Shown piece by piece: positions 1,253 to 60,202 of a DNA stretch of 64,000 bases. Under the pieces are notes generated by a model. The model was given only the letters and a program-made list of their open reading frames with translations, made no database searches and was not told where the DNA came from. Every line of letters begins with the position of its first letter. Positions within the stretch are counted from its first letter, which is position 1. Origin of the DNA: Acidaminococcales bacterium (GTDB taxonomy: Bacteria; Bacillota; Negativicutes; Acidaminococcales; JAISLQ01). Location of the stretch: contig JAVBNN010000023.1 in the NCBI GenBank assembly GCA_031551525.1, forward strand, positions 46,442 through 110,441. The letters are read 5' to 3'. A program made the translations under genes and the position numbers.

Positions 1253-4200
1253 TTACATATCAAGGTCGCTTATTTTCCGTTTAGTCATTTCTTTGCCGTG
1301 CTTTTCACCCCATCCTTCCAGCATCAGGTAGGCCACCGGCACTACGATCAAGGTCAAGATGGTCGAGGTTGTTATGCCGCCGACCATGGCCACACCCATC
1401 GATTGCCTCAGTTCAGCGCCCGCGCCGATACCTAACGCGATGGGCATCATAGCGAGTATTGTGGAAAAAGTAGTCATCAGTATCGGCCGTAAACGCAGGG
1501 AGCCGGCTTCTATCAGAGCTGCCCTTATAGATAGCCCTTCCTCACGGCCCTGATTGGCGTAGTCGACCAAGAGTATAGCGTTTTTCGTAACCACACCCAG
1601 CAGCATGATGATGCCGATCAAAGACATCATATTGATGGTCTGTCCGGCCACCATCAAACCTAAAATGGCGCCAATGATGGAAAACGGCAAAGACAGCATG
1701 ATGATGACCGGCTGTGTAAAGCTTTCAAACTGGGCGGCCAGCACCATATAGATCATGACAACAGCGATCAAGAGCGCCTTTTGTATTTCGCGGAAAGCAT
1801 CCGTCATCATGGTACCTTGCCCGATGAATTTATAACGGTAGCCGAGCGGCATGTTCATCTCGGGCAGCAGCTGGTCGCGCGTCTGGTCGAGTATCTCGCC
1901 CGGCGACACGCCTATGGCATTGGCATATACTATGACCTGCCTTTGCCGGTCTTCGCGGTCGATCTGGGTCGGGCCAGAGGTCAGACGCACATCGGCGATA
2001 TCTCCAAGCCGTACGAAGTTGCCTCCGCTGGCCGGCACCCTGATATCCGCCACATCGTTTATGTTCACCCGGTGCTGTTCCGCCAGGCGGACAAGTATTT
2101 CATAGTTTTCATCACCGACAGTAAAACGATTTTTCGTCTTATTCCCGGAAAACGCCGTTTCGATAAGTTTGCCCATTGTCTGGGCATTCGCCCCCACTGC
2201 CGCAGCTTTGTCGGGATTCAGCCTGATAGACACCGTTGGTTCGAACTCTGAACTTGAGATGTCAACGTCAGTCGCGCCCTGGGTGGATCGCAACTTGGTC
2301 GCCAGCTCGTTGGCGTATCTATTCAATTCATCGAGTTCTGAGCCCCTCAGACCTACCTGCACAGGACGCTGATCGCCGCGTCCGCCGCCCTGATTGGACA
2401 GTACCGCCACTTTTAGTCCGGTGATGTTGCGGAATTTCGCGCGCAGTTCGTCCATGATCTGCATCATACTGCGATCGCGCTCATGGCTGGGCACAAGTTT
2501 GACGTTTATCGTGCCTTCATATACAGGGCGACGCGAGCCGCCGATATTAAGATTGACCACCTGCACACCCTTTGTTTCCATGAGGGCCTTTTCCAACGGA
2601 GCAGACAAGTCTTTCATCTTGTCTATGGACGTCCCGGCCGGGGCTTTCATGCTGACGGAAAACTCTCCCGAGTCATAGGTCGGCTGGAACTCTTTGCCCA
2701 TAAAAGGCGTGAGGAAAATATTAAAGCCCAAAGACAATATAGCGATTATAAAGACCATTTTCGGCCGGTCGAGCGCCCATTCAAGCATCTCCAAGTATAA
2801 ATCCTTGGTTTTTTGGAAATATTCCTCAAACTTATCAAGGGATACCTGCAACCATCTGGGCCGGTTGGCTTCTTTTTCGTCATCAGTGACGTTCTTCAGC
2901 CAGTAGGCCGACAGCATGGGCGTCAAAGTAAAGGCGACCAAAAGGGAAAAGGCTATGGCAAAGGCTACCGTTAGTCCAAATTGCTTGAACATCTGCCCGA
3001 TGATCTCGCCCATGTTGCCGATCGGCACAAATACCGCCAAGAGAGAGAAGGTGGTCGCCAGTATGGCCAGCGATATCTCGGTAGTCGCCTGGTAGGCCGC
3101 TTGGAAATTGCTTTTGCCCATCTGCATATGCCGATAGATATTTTCAATAATGACTATCGCATCGTCGATCAGTATGCCGACCGCCAGCGACAGGCCCATC
3201 AAAGACATGTTGTTGAGCGTGAACTTCTGCCAGCTCATGATAGCAAAAGAAGCGACGATCGACGTTGGTATGGCTATACCGCCAACAACGGTCGCCCGCC
3301 AGTCCCGGAGGAACATATAAGTGATAAAGAGCGCCAGAAAACCGCCAAAGATGATGGCGTTCCAGACGTCGTCCACGTTTTCCTTGATATAAAAAGACTG
3401 GTCACGCACAAGTGCCGCCTTGATGTCTGGCGGCATATCATTTTTCATAAGCAGCGACATAGCCTCGATGACCCGGTCTGCTACATCCACCGTATTTGTA
3501 CCAGATTGTTTTCTGACCAGTATGCCGACGCTTGGGCCACCGTTCGTTCTCGAATAGGTGCGCTCTTCTCCCCATCCGTCCACTACTTCGGCTACGTCGC
3601 CGAGGCGGATCAGCCGCCCACTCTGGTTGGCCACCACCACAGCCTTCAAATCGTCGATATCGCGGTATTTGCCAACAGTCCTGACCGTCAGCTCGTTGCC
3701 GCTATCTTTTACCTTACCGCCTGGGGTATTTACATTCTCTGCGTCCACTTTATTGAGGATGTCCTGCATGCTGATGGCATAGGATTCTAGTTTTTTCGGG
3801 TCGACCTGTATTTGCAATTCGCGCGCGCTAGCGCCGATGACCGCCACTTCAGCCACTCCATCGAGCATCTGCAGTTCATCTTTTATAACATCTTCAACTA
3901 TTTTTCTGACTTCACCGCGCTCGCGTACCGGCGATGAGAATGTATAAATCAGGATGGCCTGCGAGCTGATATCGTAACGCTGCACTATCGGCTCGTCGAT
4001 ATTGTCGGGCAGCGACTTTCTTATACCCGCCACCTTTTCTCGCACTTCGCTGGCCGCCTGCCGGGGGTCTATCCCCAGTTCAAACTCGAGCGTGGTCTGC
4101 GAATACCCCTCCCTGGCCATGGAAATAATCGACTTTATGCCGGATACTGACGACACCGCGTCCTCTACCGGCTTTGTAATGAGAGTCTCCATCTCTTCCG

Positions 4201-4360
4201 GCGAAGCACCGGTATAGGTGACAGTCACATTGACATAAGGAAACTCTATCTCCGGATACAGATCCATGCCCAGATTAGGATACGCTATGCAACCAAAGAC
4301 GACCAGCACCAATACGAGCATAGTCGTAAAAACCGGCCTGGCGATGAAGACTTTGATCAT
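1253..4360 (-). CDS. RND efflux transporter permease (AcrB/HAE1-like)
   Basis: 1035 aa with the 12-TM RND layout and two large periplasmic loops. Conserved RND blocks are present (GLAVGILIDDAIVIIENI, LLVDYANQ). Confidence 0.95.
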   Translation of the reverse strand: MIKVFIARPVFTTMLVLVLVVFGCIAYPNLGMDLYPEIEFPYVNVTVTYTGASPEEMETLITKPVEDAVSSVSGIKSIISMAREGYSQTTLEFELGIDPRQAASEVREKVAGIRKSLPDNIDEPIVQRYDISSQAILIYTFSSPVRERGEVRKIVEDVIKDELQMLDGVAEVAVIGASARELQIQVDPKKLESYAISMQDILNKVDAENVNTPGGKVKDSGNELTVRTVGKYRDIDDLKAVVVANQSGRLIRLGDVAEVVDGWGEERTYSRTNGGPSVGILVRKQSGTNTVDVADRVIEAMSLLMKNDMPPDIKAALVRDQSFYIKENVDDVWNAIIFGGFLALFITYMFLRDWRATVVGGIAIPTSIVASFAIMSWQKFTLNNMSLMGLSLAVGILIDDAIVIIENIYRHMQMGKSNFQAAYQATTEISLAILATTFSLLAVFVPIGNMGEIIGQMFKQFGLTVAFAIAFSLLVAFTLTPMLSAYWLKNVTDDEKEANRPRWLQVSLDKFEEYFQKTKDLYLEMLEWALDRPKMVFIIAILSLGFNIFLTPFMGKEFQPTYDSGEFSVSMKAPAGTSIDKMKDLSAPLEKALMETKGVQVVNLNIGGSRRPVYEGTINVKLVPSHERDRSMMQIMDELRAKFRNITGLKVAVLSNQGGGRGDQRPVQVGLRGSELDELNRYANELATKLRSTQGATDVDISSSEFEPTVSIRLNPDKAAAVGANAQTMGKLIETAFSGNKTKNRFTVGDENYEILVRLAEQHRVNINDVADIRVPASGGNFVRLGDIADVRLTSGPTQIDREDRQRQVIVYANAIGVSPGEILDQTRDQLLPEMNMPLGYRYKFIGQGTMMTDAFREIQKALLIAVVMIYMVLAAQFESFTQPVIIMLSLPFSIIGAILGLMVAGQTINMMSLIGIIMLLGVVTKNAILLVDYANQGREEGLSIRAALIEAGSLRLRPILMTTFSTILAMMPIALGIGAGAELRQSMGVAMVGGITTSTILTLIVVPVAYLMLEGWGEKHGKEMTKRKISDLDM

Positions 4361-5505
4361 TTCTTCGTACCTGCCTTCTCCCCGGAAGGCTCGTCATACT
4401 TTATCTTTACACCCTGACGCAGTTTGTTTTGACCACTGACTACGATGCGTTCGCCTTCGGAAAGGCCCTTTAGCACCTCCACCCAGCCTTCTTCCACCGC
4501 GCCCAGTTCCAGAAGTTTCTGCTGCACCACGTTATCAGCATTTACCACGTACACTGTTTTTTGGTCTTCCCGCATCACCACGGCGGTTTGCGGTATCACT
4601 ACCGCACTGCGGTGTGTCTGCCCGCTCACCGATACGGCAGCATACATACCGGCGCGTAGCTGGTTGTTGGGATTGGGTACTCTTATCTCTGTCTTGAATG
4701 TACGAGCCGGCAAATCAGCCAAAGGCGAAATGCGGCTCACCTGGCCGCTGAAACTTTTTCCTTCATAGGCTGCCACGGTTATTTTGGCCGGAGCGTCCAT
4801 ATAGACATTACCTATCTGGCCCTCGCTGATATCCGATTTGGCCAATAGTACTGTAGTATCAGCCACGCTGACGATCGGCGAACCGCTCTTTAAAAAAACC
4901 CCCGCCTGTACATAGCGCCGGGTCACCACGCCGTCGCGCGGCGCCCTAATAGTCAAACCGTCAAGTTTTTCTTTTAATACTTTGAGCGCTCCTTGTGCTG
5001 CCGTATAACGGCCGGCTGTCATATCTTTGCGGGATTTAGAGTTATCGACTTCTTTTTTGGATATCGCATTTTGCTCGTATAGTTTGGTGTTGCGCTCATA
5101 TTCCCTCGCAGCGTCCTCGCTGTCCGCCATGGCTTCGTAAATAAGCCCTTCGGCCTGGAAAACCTGAGCACCAAGTTCCACCTTATCCATCTCCGCCAGT
5201 ATTTGCCCGGCTGTTACATAATCTCCTTCATTTACGTATAACTTATCAAGCCGGCTGTCTATCTTTGGTGAAATATCCGCCGACCAGACCGGTTCGAGGT
5301 TGGCGGAAAACTTTAAAGTAGGCACGATATCCTGCCGCTTTACTATAGCTGTATCCACCGACGCGGTCGTTCCCTGGAAAACCCTGGCCGCGCGTTCCCG
5401 ATTAAGTGCCATATTGCTGTAAATGCGGAACGCTACCACAGCCAGGATCGCCAGACAAACAGCTATGCCGATGGTCACTTTTTTGTTTTTCAGCCCAAAT
5501 TGCAT
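4357..5505 (-). CDS. RND efflux membrane-fusion (periplasmic adaptor) protein, HlyD/AcrA family
   Basis: 382 aa with an N-terminal TM anchor, lipoyl/coiled-coil hairpin/beta-barrel pattern, and a 4-nt overlap with the RND permease gene. Confidence 0.9.
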   Translation of the reverse strand: MQFGLKNKKVTIGIAVCLAILAVVAFRIYSNMALNRERAARVFQGTTASVDTAIVKRQDIVPTLKFSANLEPVWSADISPKIDSRLDKLYVNEGDYVTAGQILAEMDKVELGAQVFQAEGLIYEAMADSEDAAREYERNTKLYEQNAISKKEVDNSKSRKDMTAGRYTAAQGALKVLKEKLDGLTIRAPRDGVVTRRYVQAGVFLKSGSPIVSVADTTVLLAKSDISEGQIGNVYMDAPAKITVAAYEGKSFSGQVSRISPLADLPARTFKTEIRVPNPNNQLRAGMYAAVSVSGQTHRSAVVIPQTAVVMREDQKTVYVVNADNVVQQKLLELGAVEEGWVEVLKGLSEGERIVVSGQNKLRQGVKIKYDEPSGEKAGTKK

Positions 5506-13285: not shown

Positions 13286-13355
13286 TTGGCCGTGCATCGG
13301 ACCGATACCAAGAGTATGACGTCACCCGTACGAAAATACGCTGTAAAGAACATGA

Positions 13356-13388
13356 AAAAGCCTTCCGGCATAATGCCGAAAGGCTTTT
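13356..13388. terminator. Bidirectional terminator (AKR gene on plus strand, original tRNA-Thr on minus strand)
   Basis: AAAAGCCTTCCGGCA-taa-TGCCGAAAGGCTTTT, directly abutting the displaced tRNA 3' end. Confidence 0.75.
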
Positions 13389-13397
13389 ACTTTTACA

Positions 13398-13443
13398 TGG
13401 AGCCACCAACAGGAATTGAACCTGCGACCCACGCATTACGAAT
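13398..13443 (-). repeat. attL: displaced original 3' fragment of tRNA-Thr (anticodon loop to CCA)
   Basis: The reverse complement reads ATTCGTAATGCGTGGGTCGCAGGTTCAATTCCTGTTGGTGGCTCCA: a canonical T-arm (GCAGG-TTCAATT-CCTGT), acceptor 3' strand and encoded CCA. 41 of 44 nt are identical to 60129-60172. Confidence 0.9.
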
Positions 13444-13535
13444 TTGCTCAAAAAACCTATATTTACGCGTGGTTACGGCATTTATCATTTTTTATCGGTT
13501 GCGAAAAAAGGCTTGAAATCGAGGTCGAATTTTCC

Positions 13536-13557
13536 GGTTGCACACCGGTTGCACACC
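13536..13557 (+). promoter_or_regulatory. Tandem GGTTGCACACC repeats (candidate integrase arm-type sites, attL side)
   Basis: GGTTGCACACC occurs twice in tandem. The same GTTGCACACC pair recurs at 60089-60110 just inside attR. Confidence 0.6.
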
Positions 13558-13566
13558 AAAAAAATT

Positions 13567-13998
13567 TCACCTCACCGCCGCATACACCGCCGCCCCGGCT
13601 ACCAGCCAGGCAATATTGCGCTGTTGCCTAACTACCCGGACTTTTCGCTTCATTTCTTTTTCGTACTGTACTAAGGATTGATTTGCCCTCTCCAATAAGG
13701 CTTTGGACGTCGCCAAGTCTAGCCTGGCCTTGGTTATTTCGTTCCTGTACGTCACTAAGTCCTGCTGCAACTGTTCTAAGGCCTGTTGATATTGCAGTAC
13801 TTTTGCCTGCTGCTCCGTCAAGTCCTGATTGGACGCTGTCAAGTTTGCCATCAGCTGACTGTTGTGCGTCTCGAGCTGAATGAATATCTCTTCCAACCGT
13901 ACCAGTTCCGCCTCCGTCACTTCGTAAGACTGGGCCAAGCAAGGCCCAGCCCACAAGAAGAAGGATAATACCAGCAATAACAAGATACGTCTTTTCAA
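13567..13998 (-). CDS. Spanin-like lysis protein (signal peptide or anchor + coiled coil + C-terminal hydrophobic anchor)
   Basis: Last gene of the holin-endolysin cassette. TTG start with a GGGGGA RBS. N-terminus MKRRILLLLVLSFFLWAGPCLAQ, Q/L/E heptad-rich middle, C-terminus NIAWLVAGAAVYAAVR. Third codon positions are G/C-rich, as in neighbouring phage genes. Confidence 0.5.
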   Translation of the reverse strand: MKRRILLLLVLSFFLWAGPCLAQSYEVTEAELVRLEEIFIQLETHNSQLMANLTASNQDLTEQQAKVLQYQQALEQLQQDLVTYRNEITKARLDLATSKALLERANQSLVQYEKEMKRKVRVVRQQRNIAWLVAGAAVYAAVR

Positions 13999-14032
13999 TT
14001 TGCTTTCCCCCTATCTCCATAAAATCACCGCC

Positions 14033-14692
14033 TCACAGCATGGCCAGCAGATCTTTTTTCTCGTTTATAAAACGATCACGCAGGCCATTTTTGACAACAT
14101 CTTCGCTGCCACAGGTCCAGCGTTCCGGATCCCGCCAAACGCCGTTACCGCGATAGGTAGCAATCTCACAGCAGTAGCGCAAAAAGTTGTAGACGCCGGA
14201 TATAAGCATTTCGTCAAAATTCGGCGCGTCAATATAGGACAGGTTAAGGTAGCCTGGTTGCTTAAACCGCATGCCCTTTAAAAACAATTCCGGTACCCAC
14301 CCGGGGCCGTAATGCACGGCGCGGGAAAACACCATTTCCTTTACCGCGCCCGAGTGTTTGGCCACATCAAAATTGTGCTGGCGCAACAACTCTACCGCCG
14401 GATCGTAGTACATTTTTTGTGCGTACTCGTGCTGTAAGGCGAGAAATTCATCAGGGGCATTTCCCGCTATATGCCGCCACAAGTCGGAAAAGGCCGGTGT
14501 CCCGGGATGAAGATCGGCCAATAAACTGCCGAAAGAATGTTGTCTGTCCAGTAACCAATCGACAAAATCGTCCGCCACCGAAACAATAAACTGGTGAGCG
14601 CCGTAAGATATTCCACCCAGGTCACCAACGCCGGTCGATACCGCGCCAGGCCGGTTGCCGCTCTCATATTTCCCTGAAACACTACCTAACAT
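14033..14692 (-). CDS. Putative endolysin (lysozyme/chitosanase-like glycosidase fold)
   Basis: N-terminal YESGNRPGAVSTGVGDLGGISYGAHQF resembles the Glu...Asp-GG-x-S/T-YG catalytic pattern of lysozyme-fold muramidases. The gene overlaps the holin gene by 11 nt. Confidence 0.55.
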   Translation of the reverse strand: MLGSVSGKYESGNRPGAVSTGVGDLGGISYGAHQFIVSVADDFVDWLLDRQHSFGSLLADLHPGTPAFSDLWRHIAGNAPDEFLALQHEYAQKMYYDPAVELLRQHNFDVAKHSGAVKEMVFSRAVHYGPGWVPELFLKGMRFKQPGYLNLSYIDAPNFDEMLISGVYNFLRYCCEIATYRGNGVWRDPERWTCGSEDVVKNGLRDRFINEKKDLLAML

Positions 14693-15212
14693 CGCGCCGC
14701 CCTCCTCGCTTTATTTTTACCAAATCCAGTAAATCCCCCGCCTGTTCTACGCCCGCCTCTTGCATGTTTTCTAGTATCGACATAGCCTCCGACGCCCCCA
14801 TGTAGGCGACAAATAGTTTTACAAAATATTGCGGCTCACCCAGCTCAAATAGCTTTGTATCAAGCGTGGCCGCCACTAGACACATCAGCGTATACCAGAT
14901 AAACTTCCCGGCAAAGCGGTGTTTCATCGGACCGCTTTGTATATAGCCCGCCTTGCGCGCCTTACGCATATTCCAGACACAGGCGGCCAAGCCCTTTTCC
15001 GCAGCCTCGCAGTCGTCGAGATATTGACGCGTCAGGGCGATCCAGCGCGTAATGAGATCGAACACCACCAAAATGACAAACAGCAGCAGCAGTTTGGTCG
15101 GCTTGGCGGCCAGCGCGGCCACCAAAAAAGACGCCGCCAGTTTGACCGGCCAGGCGTCTGCAAGTGTATGCATTACTTTGATGATTGATAAGTACAGTTC
15201 TTGGATGTTCAA
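14682..15212 (-). CDS. Holin (Phage_holin_4_1-like)
   Basis: 176 aa with 3-4 TM segments and the family-typical ASEAMSILENMQE motif, followed by a charged C-terminal tail. It lies immediately upstream of the endolysin. Confidence 0.75.
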   Translation of the reverse strand: MNIQELYLSIIKVMHTLADAWPVKLAASFLVAALAAKPTKLLLLFVILVVFDLITRWIALTRQYLDDCEAAEKGLAACVWNMRKARKAGYIQSGPMKHRFAGKFIWYTLMCLVAATLDTKLFELGEPQYFVKLFVAYMGASEAMSILENMQEAGVEQAGDLLDLVKIKRGGRRDVR

Positions 15213-15685
15213 TTACCGCCACCTTCTTCCCCCGGCCATACCAGCACCGGCAGCTCGGCAACAAGCTCGTCTACCGTAGGTATGCCCCGCAGTCCGGCCA
15301 TGACTTCATCAAGTATTTCATAGCACTTGGCCCAGGTAGCGTCACGCATTTCTACGCCGCGCTGCCCCTCGGCGGCAAATCTGGGATTGGTGCTGGTAGC
15401 GTAGGTGCAAAGGGCAAGAACGTTGTCATAATTGCGCGTCCTGGCCCATGCGTCAAGGTGGCGTTGTACTGCCGTCGTCAATTGTGCCAGTATTTGTTCA
15501 GGTGCAGGAGGCAATACCGGCTTTAGTGTAATTACTCCATCAATCAACACAATATCTGTAATATCATAATCATCTAAGGATTCCACCACAATCTCCCCGC
15601 GTGTATTCAAGTCGTCTGTGTTCGGCGCATATGCGGTTTTTGCAATGCAATCCTTATTATTTGCAAAAATATACAACATTTTCAA
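15209..15685 (-). CDS. Hypothetical protein, possibly tail-fibre accessory/chaperone
   Basis: 158 aa directly downstream of the distal tail-fibre gene and overlapping the holin start. No firm motif; the call is by position only. Confidence 0.3.
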   Translation of the reverse strand: MKMLYIFANNKDCIAKTAYAPNTDDLNTRGEIVVESLDDYDITDIVLIDGVITLKPVLPPAPEQILAQLTTAVQRHLDAWARTRNYDNVLALCTYATSTNPRFAAEGQRGVEMRDATWAKCYEILDEVMAGLRGIPTVDELVAELPVLVWPGEEGGGN

Positions 15686-15691
15686 TCCCTC

Positions 15692-16915
15692 CTATTTCAC
15701 GCCTACGCAAAGATATTGAGCAGTAGTATTTAAAGTTGTAAGTCCCTCATTACCTTGGCATATGATTTGTGCAGTCACCACACCCGTAGTTTGTACCACA
15801 CTGCACCTTCCCGCTACAACAGCATTTCCCCCTGCAGTGGTCTCGTAGCTATTCAGCCACACCGCACACATACACTGCGTCCTAGTGTAACCACTGGGCA
15901 AAGGTATTGTTCCACCATGAGAAATAGTGCCGCTCGTTACAACAGTCGTGTTTCCCCCGGCGGCGGCATAAGCCGCTATAGCCGCGCGAACAAAAGCCGT
16001 GGTGGCTATCTGCGTACTATTGGTAGCCGTAGCCGCCGTCGGCGCGGTCGGTGTGCCCGTCAATGCAGGAGAGGCCAGATTCGCCTTGGCCGCCAGCGCT
16101 GTGTTCATGTCCGCAGTATTCGCTTTACCACTAACCGCTCCGGTAACAAAAGCCGTCGTCGCCAGTTGTGTAGTATTCACTCCCGCCGCTGCGGTCGGCG
16201 CGGTCGGTGCGCCTGTAAATGCGGGGCTGGCCAGGTTGGCTTTTGTTGCCATATTCGCCTGCACAAAGGCAGTGGTAGCCAACTGCGTATTGCTGGTAGC
16301 CGTAGCCGCCGTCGGCGCCGTTGGCGTACCGGTCAAGGCCGGACTAGCCAGATTTGCCTTGGCCGCCAGCGCGGCGTTCACACCATTGGCCAGATCATAA
16401 GCCGTTTTCACCGCCTTTGAACTGGCAGCAGTGTTGCTGTCAGCGCTCGTCACGCTGTCCGAAAGCGGCGGCGTATCGCCCTTATCACCCTTCGCCCCGG
16501 CCGGACCAGTTGCGCCGGTCGCCCCCTGAATACCCTGCGCGCCTTTGGCCCCGGTAGCGCCAGTTGCGCCCGTATCGCCTTTAGGCCCTTGCAGCCCCTG
16601 CGGCCCTTGCGCCCCGCTGTCACCCTTTGCCCCGGTTGCCCCGGCCGGGCCGGTCGCACCTACGGGGCCTTGCGCTCCGTTAACGCCGTCCGCCCCGCGC
16701 AGGCCTTGTATACCCTCTTGCCCTTGTACTCCGGCTGGGCCCCGCTCGCCGGTCATTACCGGCAGAGCCGTGAACGGCGTCACACCGTCACCCAGTTTAA
16801 AATATGGATTGGGCCCGTCCGTAACCATGCCCAGTTCCCCTTTTAGCAGCACCGGATCGTACAGTTGCCAGTTCGCCAGCGTATCGCGCCGAAATTGTAT
16901 TTGCATTAAAGACAT
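15692..16915 (-). CDS. Tail fibre protein with Mtd/HylP-type N-terminus, collagen-like stalk and tail-fibre repeats
   Basis: N-terminus QFRRDTLANWQLYDPVLLKGELGMVTDG...KLGDGVTPFTALP. About 30 G-X-Y triplets. Three copies of KANLASPA[LF]TG.PTAPTA....T.T.[LI]ATTAFV. Confidence 0.85.
   Translation of the reverse strand: MSLMQIQFRRDTLANWQLYDPVLLKGELGMVTDGPNPYFKLGDGVTPFTALPVMTGERGPAGVQGQEGIQGLRGADGVNGAQGPVGATGPAGATGAKGDSGAQGPQGLQGPKGDTGATGATGAKGAQGIQGATGATGPAGAKGDKGDTPPLSDSVTSADSNTAASSKAVKTAYDLANGVNAALAAKANLASPALTGTPTAPTAATATSNTQLATTAFVQANMATKANLASPAFTGAPTAPTAAAGVNTTQLATTAFVTGAVSGKANTADMNTALAAKANLASPALTGTPTAPTAATATNSTQIATTAFVRAAIAAYAAAGGNTTVVTSGTISHGGTIPLPSGYTRTQCMCAVWLNSYETTAGGNAVVAGRCSVVQTTGVVTAQIICQGNEGLTTLNTTAQYLCVGVK
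16478..16750 (-). repeat. Collagen-like G-X-Y repeat region of distal fibre
   Basis: GERGPAGVQGQEGIQGLRGADGVNGAQGPVGATGPAGATGAKGD... is an uninterrupted Gly-X-Y periodicity over ~90 aa. Confidence 0.9.
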
Positions 16916-19030: not shown

Positions 19031-19082
19031 TGCAAAAGTCAAGAGGTTTTTATTTTATTAGTAACGTGGTATGATTATGACA
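19031..19082 (+). promoter_or_regulatory. Repeated promoter block, copy 1 (extended -10 TGGTATGAT)
   Basis: GCAAAAGTCAAGAGGTTTTTATTTTATTAGTAACGTGGTATGATTATGACAC is near-identical to 19736-19786. It is preceded by the palindrome TTTTGCAG-N14-CTGCAAAA. Confidence 0.65.
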
Positions 19083-19099
19083 CGGAAGGAAGTGGCAAT

Positions 19100-19688: not shown

Positions 19689-19735
19689 TTTATCACCTCA
19701 CTTTTGCCCGTGCTTAAATAATAATATATGCCCGT

Positions 19736-19786
19736 GCAAAAGTCAAGAAGTTTCTTTTTTATTAGTAATGTGGTATGATTATGACA
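19736..19786 (+). promoter_or_regulatory. Repeated promoter block, copy 2 (extended -10 TGGTATGAT)
   Basis: GCAAAAGTCAAGAAGTTTCTTTTTTATTAGTAATGTGGTATGATTATGACAC, preceded by ACTTTTGC...GCAAAAGT and a duplicated TGCCCGTGC. Confidence 0.65.
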
Positions 19787-19814
19787 CAATATAGTAAAGG
19801 GGGCGGATTGTTTA

Positions 19815-44350: not shown

Positions 44351-46793
44351 GCCTAAAACCTTTTTGCGTTCCGTAATCCACGCCGACTCTTATGTTGCCG
44401 CTGCGTTCCCAGCCTTTCAGTTGTTCCAAAATCCGGTTTATGCGCAGGGCTTCATGCCTTTGTGGTAAATATCTATTGTTAAAACATTCCTGCCAAACTT
44501 CCGCTGCGCAAATACGGTCGCGCGGCACCAGGCGCCCTTCGTATTTCAGGCCCCCGCCCCAGAACATATTCCGGCGGGCCAGCTCCCACTTTTGCCAATC
44601 TTCCGGTACGGCTTTACTCAAAAATTCTTCTATCTGTCCCTGCAAAGGGTCGCGGTCGAAATGTTCCTCCCGCCGTTTTTCCGCCTCGCCCTCCAGCTCT
44701 GTACCGTTTGGCAGATATAGCGGCTCTCCTTGCCGGTAGTACGCCACCGCCTCCGCCCAAAGTTGGTTTATCTCGTTGTCGGTCAAATCTTTGAATACCG
44801 ACTTCGTCGGTTCTTGGATAAGAGCGTCTACTGGCCAAAAGCGACGGTTGCCTGTTGCGTCTTTTAGAAAATCGTGGTCGTTCGTCGTGCCGAAGAACAC
44901 GCACCTGCGCGGGTGTTTTTCCACTATCCGCCCATACGCGGCGCGGTACTGGTCGTCGCATTTAGAAAGAAAGGATTTTACTGCCCGGACGTCTGCCTTA
45001 TCGAAAGCTTCCATTTCGCTGATCTCTACTATCCAAACGCCCTGTATCAGCTCGGCGGCTTCTTTGCCTTCAAAAGTCCTCACGCTGTCGGAAAACCAGC
45101 CTCTGCCCAGTTTGGCAAACAAAGTAGACTTGCCGATGCCCTGCTTGCCGCAGATAACCGTCATACAGTCAAATTTGATACCGGGATTGAACGCCCGGGC
45201 CACCGCCGCCACGATCGCCTTGCGCGTCACCGCGCGCGTGTAGGCGCAGTCCTCGGCCCCCAGGTATTCAATATAAAGGGTGTCGAGGCGCGGCGTGCCG
45301 TCCCACTGTATCGTACTGAGATAAGCGGTCACCGGGTTGTAGCTGTGTGCCGTAGCGCATAAAATGACTGCGTCTGTGGTAAGGTCTTTTCCCCGGGTAT
45401 CGAATATCGCCTCAATGTGACTGCGTATTCCGGCGTAATCGGCGTCCGTCCATTTAAAAAGCCCGCTGGTGGTGTCGCGCCCCGCCCAGGGGAGCGGCGC
45501 CACCCCCATGATAAATTCGGAAAATTCATCCCACAGTATCCGGCCTTTTAGCCGCGGATCATATTCGAGGGCCAAGAGTACGTTTTTTATGGTCTTGACC
45601 GGCGCAAGAGAGGTTTTTGACTTTATAAGGACTTTCATCCAGTCGACGTCCGTCACTCCGGCAATGCTGCTAAGGTCGCGCGTCGCCTTTTCGTAGCGCT
45701 CCCGGTTGACCATATCCGCCACCGGTTCCTGCTGCAAGGCAAATTCGCACATGGCCAGATAGGACGGTATCTTGTGGGTGGGCGTGCCCGCCTTTGCTTC
45801 CTCGTCGAGGTGGCCGAACTTATGCAGGCGCACCAGGTCGAAAGCGTTAACCAGTTGGCCGCTGGTCGGGTCGGTCGAATGGTGGGAATAAAGGAATTTA
45901 CCATCGTCGTACACCACCGCGCCGCCGGCCGTTGTACCGTGCGTGTAGGTATAGCGGCCTGGTATGTCGGTCGCGGCATATTCCCCCGGCAGGAAAGCAT
46001 CCAGCGCCGCGTAAACGTCATAGCATTTACAGAAAGCCCCGATAACGCCGGTCTTTTCTTCTGGATCACCCTGCCGGGCGGCTGTCTTTGTCCGCAGTTC
46101 CTTTTCCCCCGGCACGTCCGGCCATTGGCTGACGTCCTGCCAGGCCGCTCTTGCGCCGTCCGTGGCGCCCGCGGCACTCGGCCCTCCTTGGCCAGCGTTT
46201 CCATATAAGGCAAGGACTCCATCGGCTGACAGAAAAGGCTTGTCCTCGAACTGGAATATGTATTGGCTGTTACTGCTGCAACTTGGCCAATACATTAAAC
46301 GGTGCGCCTCGAAGGTCGTCGGGTCGCACAGGTTGAGGCCGATGAGCTCGGCCAGCTTTCTGGCTACCGGCTGGTATTCATCCACCGCCAGCGGCCGGTC
46401 GGTCGGCAGCACCACCCGGAGGCGCGGCGCGGCCGGCTCGTGTTTGCGGGTGGAGTAAACCGCGTAGCCGCAATTCAGAGCAGACAGGCGACGGAGAACG
46501 TCGTCTGTTCCACCGGCCGGTATCTGGTCGAGGTCAAGCGTTATCAGGTCGCGGTTCTTTATGTTGTGCGCCTTCCGGCGCCCGGAAAGAGCGCCGCCCA
46601 CAAAGCCGCCGACGTCTTTTAATTCGTTCTGGTCACCCTTCGGCAGGGCCAGGTAGTCGGCCAGCGTCTCCGGGCTTTTTACCGGCACGCGCAGCTTGTC
46701 GATGAACTCAGACCACCAGAGCGTTTGTTGTATCCAGTCGAGCGCCTTTCTCGACGTGGCCGTTGAAATTGTTATTTGTCGGTTGTGCTGCAT
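44262..46793 (-). CDS. DNA primase/helicase (prim-pol-like N-terminus + VirE-family P-loop NTPase)
   Basis: 843 aa. Walker A VICGKQGIGKST, VirE-like C-terminal half, and an N-terminal primase-like region (LITLDLDQ...YAVYSTRKH). Confidence 0.85.
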   Translation of the reverse strand: MQHNRQITISTATSRKALDWIQQTLWWSEFIDKLRVPVKSPETLADYLALPKGDQNELKDVGGFVGGALSGRRKAHNIKNRDLITLDLDQIPAGGTDDVLRRLSALNCGYAVYSTRKHEPAAPRLRVVLPTDRPLAVDEYQPVARKLAELIGLNLCDPTTFEAHRLMYWPSCSSNSQYIFQFEDKPFLSADGVLALYGNAGQGGPSAAGATDGARAAWQDVSQWPDVPGEKELRTKTAARQGDPEEKTGVIGAFCKCYDVYAALDAFLPGEYAATDIPGRYTYTHGTTAGGAVVYDDGKFLYSHHSTDPTSGQLVNAFDLVRLHKFGHLDEEAKAGTPTHKIPSYLAMCEFALQQEPVADMVNRERYEKATRDLSSIAGVTDVDWMKVLIKSKTSLAPVKTIKNVLLALEYDPRLKGRILWDEFSEFIMGVAPLPWAGRDTTSGLFKWTDADYAGIRSHIEAIFDTRGKDLTTDAVILCATAHSYNPVTAYLSTIQWDGTPRLDTLYIEYLGAEDCAYTRAVTRKAIVAAVARAFNPGIKFDCMTVICGKQGIGKSTLFAKLGRGWFSDSVRTFEGKEAAELIQGVWIVEISEMEAFDKADVRAVKSFLSKCDDQYRAAYGRIVEKHPRRCVFFGTTNDHDFLKDATGNRRFWPVDALIQEPTKSVFKDLTDNEINQLWAEAVAYYRQGEPLYLPNGTELEGEAEKRREEHFDRDPLQGQIEEFLSKAVPEDWQKWELARRNMFWGGGLKYEGRLVPRDRICAAEVWQECFNNRYLPQRHEALRINRILEQLKGWERSGNIRVGVDYGTQKGFRRVNQVGAEVLTLSKKLVHTTVNLVNEQKA

Positions 46794-57353: not shown

Positions 57354-58877
57354 GTGAATTACATCTTGGATTTCAATAAGTTGTCAAGAGAAAATGGCTG
57401 TATAGAATACAAGCTTTGTGCCCATAAACTTCCTGGCACTTTTTGGGAAACTTATTCTGCTTTCGCAAATACCGCTGGCGGCACAATAATACTAGGGGTA
57501 CAAGAAAATGCTCATCACGCGCCTACTATTGAAGGCGTTGTGAATCCTGAAAAAATTATTACTGACCTTTTCAGCACGGCCTCGTCTTTAGAAAAAGTTA
57601 ATCTTAACCTGCTAAAAGAAGAAAACATATCTATAGAAACTAGCGATGATAAAAAATTTATTTGCATTATAATCCCGGAAGCGCCTATGAATAAAAAACC
57701 TGTGTATCTTAAGAAAAACATGAAACTTACGTATATCCGCAAATATGACGGTGATCATATTGCTACAGACGAGGAGCTGCGTGCATTCGTCAGAAATACT
57801 TTTGATAATATTGATAGTGAACTTTTAGATGGTTATGACATAAATGACCTCCACTTTACAAGTATTATTAATTTCAGAACACTTATACAGGAAAGAAATC
57901 CCTCCACAGATTATTCGCAAATGAACCCTACTGATTTTTTACGTCAAATGGGGTTGTTTGGTGAAGACAAAAATGATGGCGGAAAAATAAAACTTACATT
58001 AGGAGGATTATTGTTTTTAGGTAAATATCAATCTATAATAAACAAAATTCCGCATTTTCATTTAGATTATTTTGATAAGCGCGGCAATAGTGAGCGTTGG
58101 CGAGATAGAGTTGCTGCGGGTGATCTTTTATACCCTGAACTTAATGTGTTTTCATACTATTGGACGATTTACAGTAAATTGAAATCCACAATAGAAGAAC
58201 CATTTAAGTTAGACAAAAATATCATTCGTAAATCAGCTATAGAATTAGATGTGGCGTTACGTGAAGCACTAGTAAACATGCTCATTCATGCTGATTATAG
58301 AGAAGCAAGTACTTCATTAACAACTGAAGTACATGATGCATATTATATATTTATAAATCCCGGAATAATGAAAATCTCCCCAAAAGAGTTTTTTACTGGA
58401 GGAATTTCTAAGCCCCGAAACCATGTTTTAACAACTTTATTTCGTAAAATGGGGGTCTCCGAGCGTGCCGGTAGTGGCGGGCCCAAAATATATGATGTTG
58501 TAAATAAAAACCAATTTCGTATGCCAGAACTGGAAACAAACTTGGAAAAAACCATTCTTAAACTATGGGGCGTAGAGTTGGAACATTCTTACCCAGAACT
58601 ATCCGCCAATGCAAAGGCCGTATATTTGGTCTTAAAGGATCCTTCCAATACCTATTCATCTTCACAAATCCAAGACAAAACCAAGTTGAGTAGGCATTAT
58701 TTACGACAAGCACTAAAAGAATTAGAAGATAAGGACTTAATCATAAGAACAGGACAAAAAAAATCTCAGAAATATACTAAAAAAATGTCTAATATAGAGC
58801 TTATTTCCATAATTGACAGAGGATTTAAGCATGCTAAAGATTTATTACTTGCTTACGATAACAAAGAAGATCGGTGA
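57354..58877 (+). CDS. AlbA_2 (Schlafen-like) + HATPase_c_4 + C-terminal wHTH protein
   Basis: N-terminus IEYK...TYSAFANTAGGTIILGV (AlbA_2/divergent AAA). Middle ALREALVNMLIHADYR (RecG-C-like HATPase_c_4). The true start may be the TTG at 57366. Confidence 0.75.
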   Translation: MNYILDFNKLSRENGCIEYKLCAHKLPGTFWETYSAFANTAGGTIILGVQENAHHAPTIEGVVNPEKIITDLFSTASSLEKVNLNLLKEENISIETSDDKKFICIIIPEAPMNKKPVYLKKNMKLTYIRKYDGDHIATDEELRAFVRNTFDNIDSELLDGYDINDLHFTSIINFRTLIQERNPSTDYSQMNPTDFLRQMGLFGEDKNDGGKIKLTLGGLLFLGKYQSIINKIPHFHLDYFDKRGNSERWRDRVAAGDLLYPELNVFSYYWTIYSKLKSTIEEPFKLDKNIIRKSAIELDVALREALVNMLIHADYREASTSLTTEVHDAYYIFINPGIMKISPKEFFTGGISKPRNHVLTTLFRKMGVSERAGSGGPKIYDVVNKNQFRMPELETNLEKTILKLWGVELEHSYPELSANAKAVYLVLKDPSNTYSSSQIQDKTKLSRHYLRQALKELEDKDLIIRTGQKKSQKYTKKMSNIELISIIDRGFKHAKDLLLAYDNKEDR

Positions 58878-58934
58878 CCATGGAAAACTCATTCCATGCC
58901 GACTGTTCCAGCGACAGCCAGCACCAAGGAGCAC

Positions 58935-60050
58935 CACATGACCAAACGCAAACGCCCTAATGGAGAGGGAACCATATATTACGACAAGAAAAAAGACCTC
59001 TGGCGCGCCATGCTGCCGACACCGCTTGGCCGACGCATGACCAAATCCAGCAAAAGCGAAGAAGTAGTCAAGGACTGGTACAACCAGCAGCGCCTGCTTA
59101 TCGGCCGCGGCAAACACATAGAGCCGCACGCTATCACAGTTTTGCAGTGGATAACAGAGTGGCTGGACAGTTATGCCAAAATCAAAGTAAAGCCTCGGAC
59201 ATATGACCGATATGTCAGCATATCCAAACACCTTGCCCCCATTTATCAGGAACGTCTCCTTGCGCTCTCTCCAGCACACCTACAACGCGTTTACAATGGA
59301 ATGCTGAACACTTACTCGCCCCAAACCATAATCTACGTTCACAGCCTCGCACACAACAGCCTGCGGCAAGCCGTACTTAACAACCTAATACACGATAACC
59401 CGGCGGACAAAGTAACCTTACCCAAAAAGACCCGCAAGCCTATAGCCATATACACCCCCGATGAAATCCTTGCCCTGATCGCGGCAGCCGAAAATTACCG
59501 CAATAGCCTAGTCGTCAAACTCACCTACGCCACCGGACTGCGCCTCTCGGAAGTGCTGGCCCTGCGCTGCGAAGATATTAAAGGTAATGATCTTGAAGTA
59601 AATCAAACCGTCCACGAAAGTACCAGCCAAGGCAAATACTACTCGGACACAAAGTCCACCAACTCACGCCGTAAAATACCCATCCCGCAAATCATCGCAA
59701 CGGCCATCGACGAGCACAAACTAAAAACCGGCATACGGCAAGGACTCCTGTTCCTGAATACCCGAAAAACCGGCGAAAGCCCACATAACTACCTAAGCAA
59801 AATCTTCTCAAAAATTCAGGAAGATGCCGGCGCGAAAAAAGGATTTCACTGCCTGCGCCACACACACGCAACCGAACTCCTCAGCTCCGGCATACCCATA
59901 CACGACGTATCGCGTCGCCTTGGCCATGCTAAAGCAAGCTTTACCCTCGATACCTATATCCAATTTATGCCCGCCTCAGATGAACGAATGATAAGTGCGA
60001 TCGACATCCTCTTAAACCTAGACGCCAGAAAAACAAAAACGCCGCAATAG
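58935..60050 (+). CDS. int: Tyrosine recombinase / phage integrase
   Basis: TGLRLSEVLALRCEDI (Arg), HCLRHTHATELL (H-x-x-R), LGHAKASFTLDTYIQF (His and Tyr). AAGGAG RBS at the ATG at 58935. Adjacent to attR. Confidence 0.95.
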   Translation, partial: HMTKRKRPNGEGTIYYDKKKDLWRAMLPTPLGRRMTKSSKSEEVVKDWYNQQRLLIGRGKHIEPHAITVLQWITEWLDSYAKIKVKPRTYDRYVSISKHLAPIYQERLLALSPAHLQRVYNGMLNTYSPQTIIYVHSLAHNSLRQAVLNNLIHDNPADKVTLPKKTRKPIAIYTPDEILALIAAAENYRNSLVVKLTYATGLRLSEVLALRCEDIKGNDLEVNQTVHESTSQGKYYSDTKSTNSRRKIPIPQIIATAIDEHKLKTGIRQGLLFLNTRKTGESPHNYLSKIFSKIQEDAGAKKGFHCLRHTHATELLSSGIPIHDVSRRLGHAKASFTLDTYIQFMPASDERMISAIDILLNLDARKTKTPQ

Positions 60051-60110: not shown

Positions 60111-60129
60111 CGAAACCTTGAAGGCATTG

Positions 60130-60202
60130 AGCCACCAACATGAATTTAACCTGCGACCAACGCATTACGAATGCGTTGCTCTACCGGCTGAGCTATGGTG
60201 GC
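60130..60202 (-). tRNA. tRNA-Thr (anticodon CGT) whose 3' half is prophage-derived (attR)
   Basis: Manual cloverleaf: acceptor GCCACCA/TGGTGGC, D-arm GCTC-AGCCGGTA-GAGC, anticodon arm ACGCA-TTCGTAA-TGCGT. The T-arm GCAGG-TTAAATT-CATGT has a G52-A62 mismatch and A56. No CCA is encoded. Confidence 0.85.

Follow-up and report, generated by a model that had tools for sequence, protein, structure and literature searches.

What is encoded in the 454 nt that directly follow the endolysin gene of a prophage in an Acidaminococcales bacterium, one protein or two, and which step of host lysis might it serve? The stretch lies on contig JAVBNN010000023.1 of assembly GCA_031551525.1, of which positions 46,442 to 110,441 were analyzed (64,000 nt, hereafter the window, in whose own numbering all coordinates are given). 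It holds two long open reading frames (ORFs), ORF130 and ORF143, in different frames of the minus strand; the start of ORF143 lies 22 nt downstream of that of ORF130 and its end 61 nt beyond the end of ORF130, and the 371 nt that are read in both frames make up 94% of ORF130 and 86% of ORF143, or about 122 codons. A first-pass annotation of this DNA had placed both ORFs behind a holin and an endolysin gene, an order that holds good, with the domains of the two lysis genes confirmed by Pfam. It favored the 143-aa frame for its G/C-rich third codon positions and regarded the second frame as doubtful. The difference in G/C content at third positions (GC3) is real, 0.65 in the 143-aa frame versus 0.31 in the 130-aa frame, but the comparative data show both frames to be conserved coding sequence, and the unit is therefore a two-gene overlapped module and not the single hybrid of unimolecular and inner-membrane spanin (u-spanin and i-spanin) that had been proposed. 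With a probability of roughly 0.6, the pair represents a lipoprotein-free, overlapped analogue of the two-component spanins, a reading in which we infer both the function and the host range.

The first question is whether both frames are translated. The comparison set consisted of the window and 15 further loci drawn from metagenomes, IMG/VR, and assemblies, 16 loci altogether, reaching down to about 30% identity. The ORF130 frame is open in every one of them; the open stretch begins upstream of the ORF143 start and reaches to about 20 codons short of the ORF143 stop. The third frame of the same strand is broken in all 15 loci compared (L006 excepted), staying open for just 1–9 codons at the gene start in the window, L001, L002, and L005 and for 2–30 codons at mid-gene in the other eleven. 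When the ORF143 protein was held fixed and synonymous codons were redrawn from local usage, the probability of finding the ORF130 frame open ranged from <2.5e-5 to 7.5e-4 per locus in all 13 loci so treated, with a value of 5e-4 for the window. A second null, in which the gene's own codons, depleted of T at the third position (T3), were permuted, gave probabilities between 2.5e-5 and 0.13, the values being 2e-4 for L005, 1.3e-4 for L012, and 2.5e-5 for L014. The depletion itself is pronounced: T occupies 0.09–0.21 of ORF143 third positions versus 0.22–0.40 in surrounding genes (0.09 in the window versus 0.22 in the genome), and this is the bias needed for avoiding NNT-AA, NNT-AG, and NNT-GA stops in the other frame. 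The reverse test, the probability that the ORF143 frame is open given the ORF130 protein, yielded 1e-4 to 4e-4 in the window clade.

The substitution pattern points in the same direction. Between the window and L001, divergence at the three codon positions is flat in the overlap (0.23/0.27/0.28), whereas it rises at the third position in the endolysin gene (0.22/0.19/0.53) and the holin gene (0.16/0.06/0.45); among identical residues, the fraction of changed codons is 0.32 for ORF143 and 0.19 for ORF130, as opposed to 0.54 and 0.47 in the neighbors. At the protein level, similarity of the ORF143 frame to L005, which is 31% identical, lies far above a synonymous-resampling null conditioned on the other frame (P<2e-4 in three out of three comparisons). 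The converse was asked in the 79 locus pairs sharing at most 45% ORF143 identity: in all 79, ORF130-frame similarity exceeds a conservative null, with a median z of 3.2, z>2 in 60 pairs, and a lowest z of 0.3. Judged by these comparisons, the ORF130 product is more conserved than the ORF143 frame alone would force it to be.

Each frame also has translation signals of its own. The start proposed for ORF130 in the first-pass annotation, an ATG with a ribosome-binding site after the endolysin stop codon, stands, with the correction that the gap to that stop measures 12 nt instead of 10. ORF143 starts at TTG and not at ATG, behind a separate Shine-Dalgarno sequence; L001 and L002 have AGGAGGG at this place, the end of which is 7 nt away from the TTG. 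A GAGGTG-type Shine-Dalgarno sequence located 6–9 nt before the ORF130 ATG is kept in the window, L001, and L002, the last of which has a different upstream gene. Since each frame has its own start and Shine-Dalgarno sequence, nothing requires a programmed frameshift fusing the two. In some cases, gene callers took the ORF130 frame (P0154–P0163), and three such loci hold an ORF143-family protein in the +1 frame. In L014 (position 3446), no ATG, GTG, or TTG precedes the membrane helix in the ORF130-family frame; the sole candidate start there, preceded by the Shine-Dalgarno sequence TAGGAGGT, is an ATT located 1 nt ahead of the TTG of the ORF143-family frame. The ORF130-family start in this locus may be non-canonical, or the partner may not be expressed.

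Two single-gene explanations have to be weighed against these data. According to the first, ORF143 alone is functional, disrupting the outer membrane in the manner of a unimolecular spanin or a disruptin, and ORF130 is a non-functional open frame tolerated within a coiled-coil gene rich in Q, E, and L and poor in T3. It is true that ORF143 is the better conserved product toward L005 (45.8 versus 23.9 bits), that its frame has the higher GC3 and is the one chosen by most gene callers, and that ORF130 alone finds no homologue among 5.8 billion proteins, its relatives having been found only via alignment of alternative-frame translations. However, a frame that is only tolerated would hardly stay open between the same limits in all 16 loci, at odds of 2.5e-5 to 2e-4 under own-codon permutation in the three loci named above; nor would it be expected to conserve a strong Shine-Dalgarno sequence and an ATG 22 nt upstream of the ORF143 start, to show excess similarity in each of the 79 divergent pairs, or to suppress third-position divergence relative to its neighbors. 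This explanation is accordingly improbable. The second and opposite explanation, in which the Rz-like ORF130 frame is the only real gene and ORF143 a by-product, can invoke the ATG start and stronger Shine-Dalgarno sequence of ORF130 as well as L005, where openness of the ORF143 frame is unsurprising given the ORF130-frame protein (P=0.09). It founders on the ORF143-frame similarity, which is far above the null given ORF130, on the low probabilities of the reverse test in the window clade, and on features that ORF143 conserves across at least 110 clusters, namely a signal peptide, a mature-end motif, and a C-terminal extension outside the overlap; it is barely credible.

Several observations count against dual coding. 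Among 68 long ORFs used as an empirical baseline, 15 stop-free +2-frame runs of at least 90 codons and 4 of at least 120 codons were encountered, corresponding to chance rates per gene-sized stretch of about 6% and 2%, respectively. Conservation of ORF130 beyond the level induced by ORF143 is not significant in some pairs (L001–L005, P=0.09; L002–L005, P=0.26), the locus pairs are phylogenetically non-independent, and the resampling null ignores codon-pair bias. Because long open +2 frames occur at 2–6%, a single locus proves little, and the argument for both frames rests on the 16 of 16 loci with the same boundaries, together with the substitution pattern, protein conservation, and translation signals. 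The recurrence of the same open frame with the same boundaries in all loci is far beyond what chance would produce, and we consider it highly probable that both frames are coding.

The relatives of the pair bear on its function. A word-indexed search with ORF143 returned only four homologues (P0001–P0004), two of which come from contigs of an Acidaminococcales (Negativicutes) genome, where a holin and an endolysin gene precede each of them. An exhaustive profile search extended the family to 428 clusters at E<=1e-3 and 110 at E<=1e-10, all of them 120–170 aa long and matched over their full length; a 60-member alignment of the family proved too diverse for pattern scanning. The family is almost absent from deposited phage genomes: tblastn of ORF143 and three family members against 50,697 phage records gave one weak match, in an unannotated faecal metagenome phage, and a scan of viral contigs with the four close homologues gave none. 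Neither family was encountered as a standalone copy. An endolysin gene adjoins the pair or lies within about 900 nt of it in 14 of the 16 loci, and the neighboring endolysins belong to at least four unrelated types (VgrG3-like_C, Peptidase_M15, Amidase_3, and Amidase_2); the PF21277 domain of the window endolysin is also found ahead of the pair in L001 and L009. Seven loci have an identified Phage_holin_4_1 holin. In L016, a baseplate-like gene (weak Gp10_C match) precedes the pair, which is separated by about 2.5 kb from the holin and from an endolysin of the GH25 type. The search for homologues and for frame-specific conservation that had been recommended at the outset found both frames conserved and the pair tied to lysis cassettes. 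A constant element that accompanies unrelated peptidoglycan hydrolases matches the pattern of spanins, and the earlier suggestion of a lysis-cassette gene with spanin-like features is supported in this respect. That the pair functions in lysis is very likely.

Two of these neighborhoods carry additional genes. In L015, a DNA methylase and a HaeIII-type restriction enzyme are inserted in the lysis region (1975–3923), with the holin and an unannotated 136-aa gene upstream of the insertion and the overlapping pair downstream. In L002, an Acidaminococcales prophage, two extra small genes (1114–1443 and 1509–1823) lie between the M15 endolysin and the pair, one for a protein of 109 aa with a signal peptide and the other for a protein of 104 aa that has several hydrophobic segments.

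The product of ORF143 has the features of a secreted rod. The N-terminal hydrophobic signal, heptads, and hydrophobic C-terminus attributed to it earlier were all recovered, with a heptad register running continuously from about residue 8 to 110, and AlphaFold models residues 29–142 as a single helix of about 114 residues and 17 nm at a predicted local distance difference test score (pLDDT) of 87. Throughout the family, the signal peptide consists of an n-region with lysine or arginine (K/R), a Leu-rich core, and an AXA-type end (CSA, CLA, VSA, ASA, GMA, or AKA). The mature end reads Y-x-I-T-E-x-E-L-T-x-L-E-x-I-F and is followed by a rod of about 104 residues, the motif A-N-x-S-L-x-x-Y-E-x-E-x-K ... 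K-x-Q-R-N, and an uncharged Ala/Gly-rich tail with a median of 12 residues (mostly 11–16), which has a net charge of about +3 on its N-terminal side and K/R at its end. The ORF130 stop codon lies upstream of the tail in every locus, and the tail is therefore encoded in DNA that ORF130 does not read. On the Hessa scale, applied here as a rough position-independent sum over the best 19-residue window, the signal core scores about 0.2 and the tail +9.4 in the family median and +11.8 in the window, with 2% of members below +2. Of the C-terminal anchor claimed in the first-pass annotation, the hydrophobic stretch (14 uncharged residues in the window) is confirmed and the conventional transmembrane segment is not; a standard membrane span is unlikely. 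A u-spanin-like topology is likewise not borne out, there being no lipoprotein signal and a tail that is probably too short for a normal span. Database comparisons of the rod yielded little: Foldseek is uninformative for a single long helix of this type, searches of PDB sequences returned generic coiled coils alone (Lpp, tropomyosin, SMC, and designed coils), and NCBIfam gave coiled-coil noise below cut-off, the best being TIGR04211 SH3_and_anchor with 27 bits against a cut-off of 65.

Whether ORF143 could nevertheless be a true outer-membrane spanin (o-spanin) or u-spanin lipoprotein, lipidated at a conserved cysteine within an unusual lipobox (such as AGPC or GTCS), depends on the residues around the cleavage site. 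Of 101 members, 64 have a cysteine no more than 12 residues from the mature-end motif, among them the window and all close relatives, and unusual lipoboxes such as AWAC do work in u-spanins (PMC6139136). On the other hand, the cysteine near the cleavage site is missing in the remaining 37, and 10 of 110 members have none in their first 45 residues at all. Just 2 of the 64 cysteines follow G or A, most being preceded by T, P, I, S, L, or Y. Of the 101 members, one has a classical lipobox and 6 have one of the PROSITE type; the window has AGPC, with proline at −1. Negativicutes, moreover, are without LolA and LolB and hence offer such a protein no known sorting route to the outer membrane (PMC5007114). 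In the window, Cys20 (13939–13941) falls at −3 of the predicted signal peptidase I (SPase I) site, and about 63% of the family carry cysteine at this position, in C-S-A or C-L-A. Cysteine is unusually frequent here for the −3 position of an AXA-type site; it does not form a lipobox, and could reflect a constraint from the overlapping frame or some other function. Read in this way, the family is not one of lipoproteins, and the lipidated alternative is very improbable; export of ORF143 by the Sec pathway with SPase I cleavage at CLA↓Q is the reading suggested by its sequence, in agreement with the initial view that the cysteine lies outside a working lipobox. A small o-spanin hidden elsewhere in the cassette was considered as well and rejected, no lipobox ORF having been found anywhere in 13300–15300.

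ORF130 resembles the other half of a spanin. Its relatives have K/R residues before a membrane helix of about 20 residues, then a short linker and one helix, a layout common to all that could be aligned; the rough Hessa sum of the N-terminal segment has a family median of about −0.8, and the positive residues ahead of the helix predict an N-in topology. The helical domain carries the motifs G-x-D-x-V-R-x-D-L ... L-I-x-E-G-x-x-I-L-x-x-V-R-x-R. For ORF130 itself, AlphaFold places a membrane helix at residues 6–28 and a second helix at 41–126 (about 86 residues, a rod of about 13 nm) with a pLDDT of 71. The predicted architecture is that of an i-spanin such as lambda Rz, i.e., a type II inner-membrane protein. 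Its relatives L014 and L006 match eight Rz-like spanin families of PHROGs with E values of 6e-4 to 0.016, which is resemblance and not membership; neither ORF130 nor ORF143 of the window has a spanin match in Pfam, PHROGs, or NCBIfam.

Comparison with characterized systems places the pair close to, though outside, the known two-component spanins. Like lambda Rz/Rz1 and P2 LysB/LysC (Kongari et al. 2018, PMC6139136), it forms the last element of a holin–endolysin cassette, one subunit (ORF130) combines a membrane helix at its N-terminus with a helical domain in the periplasm, and the second subunit is encoded in the +1 frame from a start inside the first gene; the parallel drawn earlier with the embedding of Rz1 in Rz was apt. 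As in the "overlapped" class exemplified by P2 lysB/lysC (PMC6139136), the second gene runs past the end of the first, here in an extreme form, with an overlap of about 122 codons compared with 60 for Rz1. ORF143 departs from Rz1 and LysC in that it has no lipobox, is secreted in SPase I fashion, is longer than its partner, and consists of a long coiled coil with a hydrophobic tail. Nor does the pair have conserved cysteines in the periplasmic parts. Its layout is thus that of the overlapped class, from which it is set apart by the missing lipobox, the defining trait, and by the lack of significant sequence homology. The u-spanin T1 gp11 is likewise a small protein at the end of its cassette, with an N-terminal export signal and a C-terminal hydrophobic segment, but its signal is that of an outer-membrane lipoprotein, its C-terminal span is a real one, and its periplasmic domain is mostly beta (PMC6139136). 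ORF143 lacks a lipobox and a clear C-terminal span; it has a tail of 11–16 residues, a single helix, and an overlapping partner gene in all 16 loci.

Two further systems offer looser parallels. The disruptin gp28 of phage phiKT attacks the outer membrane from within, independently of spanins and free of a lipid anchor, as is proposed here for the pair, and the basic cluster and hydrophobic tail of ORF143 are loosely reminiscent of it. Gp28 is reportedly a short cationic amphipathic peptide without a signal peptide, a coiled coil, or an overlapping partner. It has been described as a phage-encoded cationic antimicrobial peptide (bioRxiv 10.1101/515445). Class I viral fusion proteins (influenza HA2 and HIV gp41) resemble the pair in shape alone: a coiled-coil rod has a short Ala/Gly-rich peptide at one end and an anchor at the other. 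There is no homology, and in the pair the anchor and the "fusion peptide" would reside on two polypeptides. Spanins have been compared to class I viral fusion proteins before, and the notion of a fusion peptide in ORF143 draws on this general background and on the composition of its tail.

The presumed host lends the absence of a lipobox a possible rationale. Homologous loci carry the title Acidaminococcales bacterium, and the closest relatives at the DNA level lie in an Acidaminococcales (Negativicutes) genome. Negativicutes possess an outer membrane with lipopolysaccharide and no LolA or LolB, and in Veillonella parvula not a single lipoprotein of the outer membrane has been identified (PMC5007114, PMC10665443). 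An outer-membrane subunit free of lipid would fit such a host because LolA and LolB are missing. Spanins have been reported absent from phages of Gram-positive and cyanobacterial hosts (PMC12596118), and in the literature searched no account was found that links spanins to Negativicutes or describes how phages of Negativicutes breach the outer membrane. The host flank of the window encodes an AcrB-family resistance–nodulation–division transporter and an HlyD-type periplasmic adaptor (1253–5505, minus strand), a pump that is consistent with, though not proof of, a double-membraned host.

Judging by where the genes lie, by the architecture of their products, and by what the host would require, the pair probably carries out the outer-membrane step of lysis. 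In the topology that can be tentatively proposed, ORF130 would hold the inner membrane through its N-terminal helix and project one helix into the periplasm, while ORF143 would be exported by its cleavable Sec signal as a helical rod ending in a basic cluster and the short Ala/Gly-rich tail. The two rods would associate in the periplasm, which their combined lengths of about 13 + 17 nm could span, and the basic cluster and hydrophobic tail would engage the inner leaflet of the outer membrane, thereby replacing the acyl chains that anchor an o-spanin. After removal of the peptidoglycan by the endolysin, the complex would collapse and the outer membrane would be disrupted or fused, as proposed for Rz/Rz1. 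A 21-nt periodicity of the DNA puts the heptads of both proteins in register, and they could hence form one heteromeric coiled coil. The fuller version of this idea, in which a spanin devoid of any lipid anchor joins both rods, having evolved together, in one periplasm-spanning heteromeric coiled coil and the ORF143 tail acts like a fusion peptide in the outer membrane of diderm Firmicutes lacking the Lol system, is more doubtful still than the topology as such.

A number of points weigh against this assignment of function. The outer-membrane disruption is deduced from gene position, architecture, and host needs; the model does not explain by which route ORF143 would reach the outer membrane, and its tail could instead be a weak stop-transfer anchor in the inner membrane. 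ORF130 of the window has no Rz-family match in PHROGs, its relatives match weakly and in part on account of the membrane helix, and a host has been assigned for only two of the 16 loci, both in Acidaminococcales. The principal rival takes up these points: both proteins are real, yet their target is not the outer membrane, and they might serve, for example, in holin timing (as an antiholin-like pair), in lysis inhibition, in an action on the inner membrane or on the tether between OmpM and peptidoglycan, or in superinfection exclusion. Function has indeed been derived from position and shape, both proteins could be anchored in the inner membrane (ORF130 by its N-terminal helix and ORF143 by a weak stop-transfer tail), and homology to a characterized spanin is not significant. 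Yet the pair is the constant third element beside four unrelated endolysin types, as spanins are, rods of about 13 and 17 nm would suit a periplasm-spanning structure, the cassette has neither another candidate for the outer-membrane step nor a lipobox ORF, and Rz-like spanin is the sole annotated PHROG category that recurs among the matches. Such other roles are therefore unlikely, although less so than any of the alternatives discussed above, and the reading as a lipoprotein-free spanin analogue is preferred.

The coordinates of the features are compiled in Table 1. On the minus strand of the window, the order is tail fibre (15692–16915), a 158-aa protein of no assigned function, holin, endolysin, and ORF130/ORF143, the 3′ end of the holin gene overlapping the endolysin start by 11 nt. 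No minus-strand promoter-like site was found inside the lysis cassette in the window, and co-transcription of the pair with the holin and endolysin genes is the best reading; an Rfam scan of the region returned nothing meaningful. A diverged copy of the 3′ part of tRNA-Thr follows about 125 nt downstream of the ORF pair, and because it matches the intact tRNA-Thr beside the integrase gene, the pair is placed at the prophage end, as the terminal gene of a prophage of about 47 kb integrated at tRNA-Thr.

Table 1. Features of the lysis cassette, the overlapping gene pair, and the prophage ends (window numbering).
Feature	Coordinates	Strand	Remarks
Holin, 176 aa	14682–15212	−	First gene of the lysis cassette; Pfam Phage_holin_4_1, E 2.7e-9; PHROG 199 holin
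Endolysin, 219 aa	14033–14692	−	VgrG3-like C-terminal muramidase-type domain; Pfam PF21277, E 6.4e-34
ORF130	13628–14020	−	ATG start; upstream-starting frame; i-spanin-like membrane protein (Rz-like architecture)
ORF143	13567–13998	−	TTG start; +1 frame of ORF130; secreted coiled-coil protein with hydrophobic C-terminal tail; proposed outer-membrane-engaging subunit
Dual-coding overlap, 371 nt, two frames	13628–13998	−	
Shine-Dalgarno GAGGCGGTGA for the ORF130 ATG	14025–14034	−	Overlaps the endolysin stop codon; read from the sequence
Shine-Dalgarno AGGGGGA for the ORF143 TTG	14006–14012	−	Inside ORF130 codons 3–5 (I-G-G); ends 7 nt upstream of the TTG
Transmembrane helix of ORF130, residues 12–32, YLVIAGIILLLVGWALLGPVL	13925–13987	−	Kyte-Doolittle windows up to 2.6
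Sec signal peptide of ORF143, residues 1–22, MKRRILLLLVLSFFLWAGPCLA	13933–13998	−	Predicted SPase I cleavage CLA↓Q
C-terminal tail of ORF143, NIAWLVAGAAVYAAVR	13570–13617	−	Within the 58-nt coding part (13570–13627) without ORF130 overlap
tRNA-Thr 3′ fragment, 46 nt, attachment-site duplicate	13398–13443	−	Aligns with the 3′ part of the intact tRNA-Thr
Intact tRNA-Thr(CGU)	60129–60202	−	Adjoins the integrase gene
Phage_integrase gene, tyrosine-type	58896–60050	+	At the prophage end opposite to the lysis module

Other parts of the prophage contain features of separate interest. The tail fibre combines collagen triple-helix repeats and phage tail-fibre repeats with an Mtd_N domain (major tropism determinant) at its N-terminus. 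In the Bordetella phage BPP-1, diversity-generating retroelements target Mtd. Two 53-nt direct repeats (19031–19083 and 19735–19787), 704 nt apart and 92% identical, have the sequence TGCAAAAGTCAAGAGGTTTTTATTTTATTAGTAACGTGGTATGATTATGACAC and look like duplicated promoter or operator regions. Just inside the prophage, beside the integrase gene, a 507-aa protein with Schlafen AlbA_2 and HATPase_c_4 domains (57354–58877, plus strand) may be a regulator or a defence gene.

The pair illustrates natural dual coding that is nearly total, with about 122 codons read in two frames, both under selection and both encoding long helices. As gene callers keep one frame only, one of the two genes is missed in the annotation of every genome. 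All spanins described to date rely on an outer-membrane lipoprotein signal, by which o-spanins and u-spanins are defined, and survey pipelines drop candidates that have no lipobox (PMC6139136, PMC12596118), for which reason the ORF130/ORF143 family has been invisible to spanin surveys. Its 428 clusters constitute a concrete candidate for the outer-membrane step in phages of Negativicutes, and a spanin free of any lipid anchor would, if the reading is true, be the way in which these phages solve that step.

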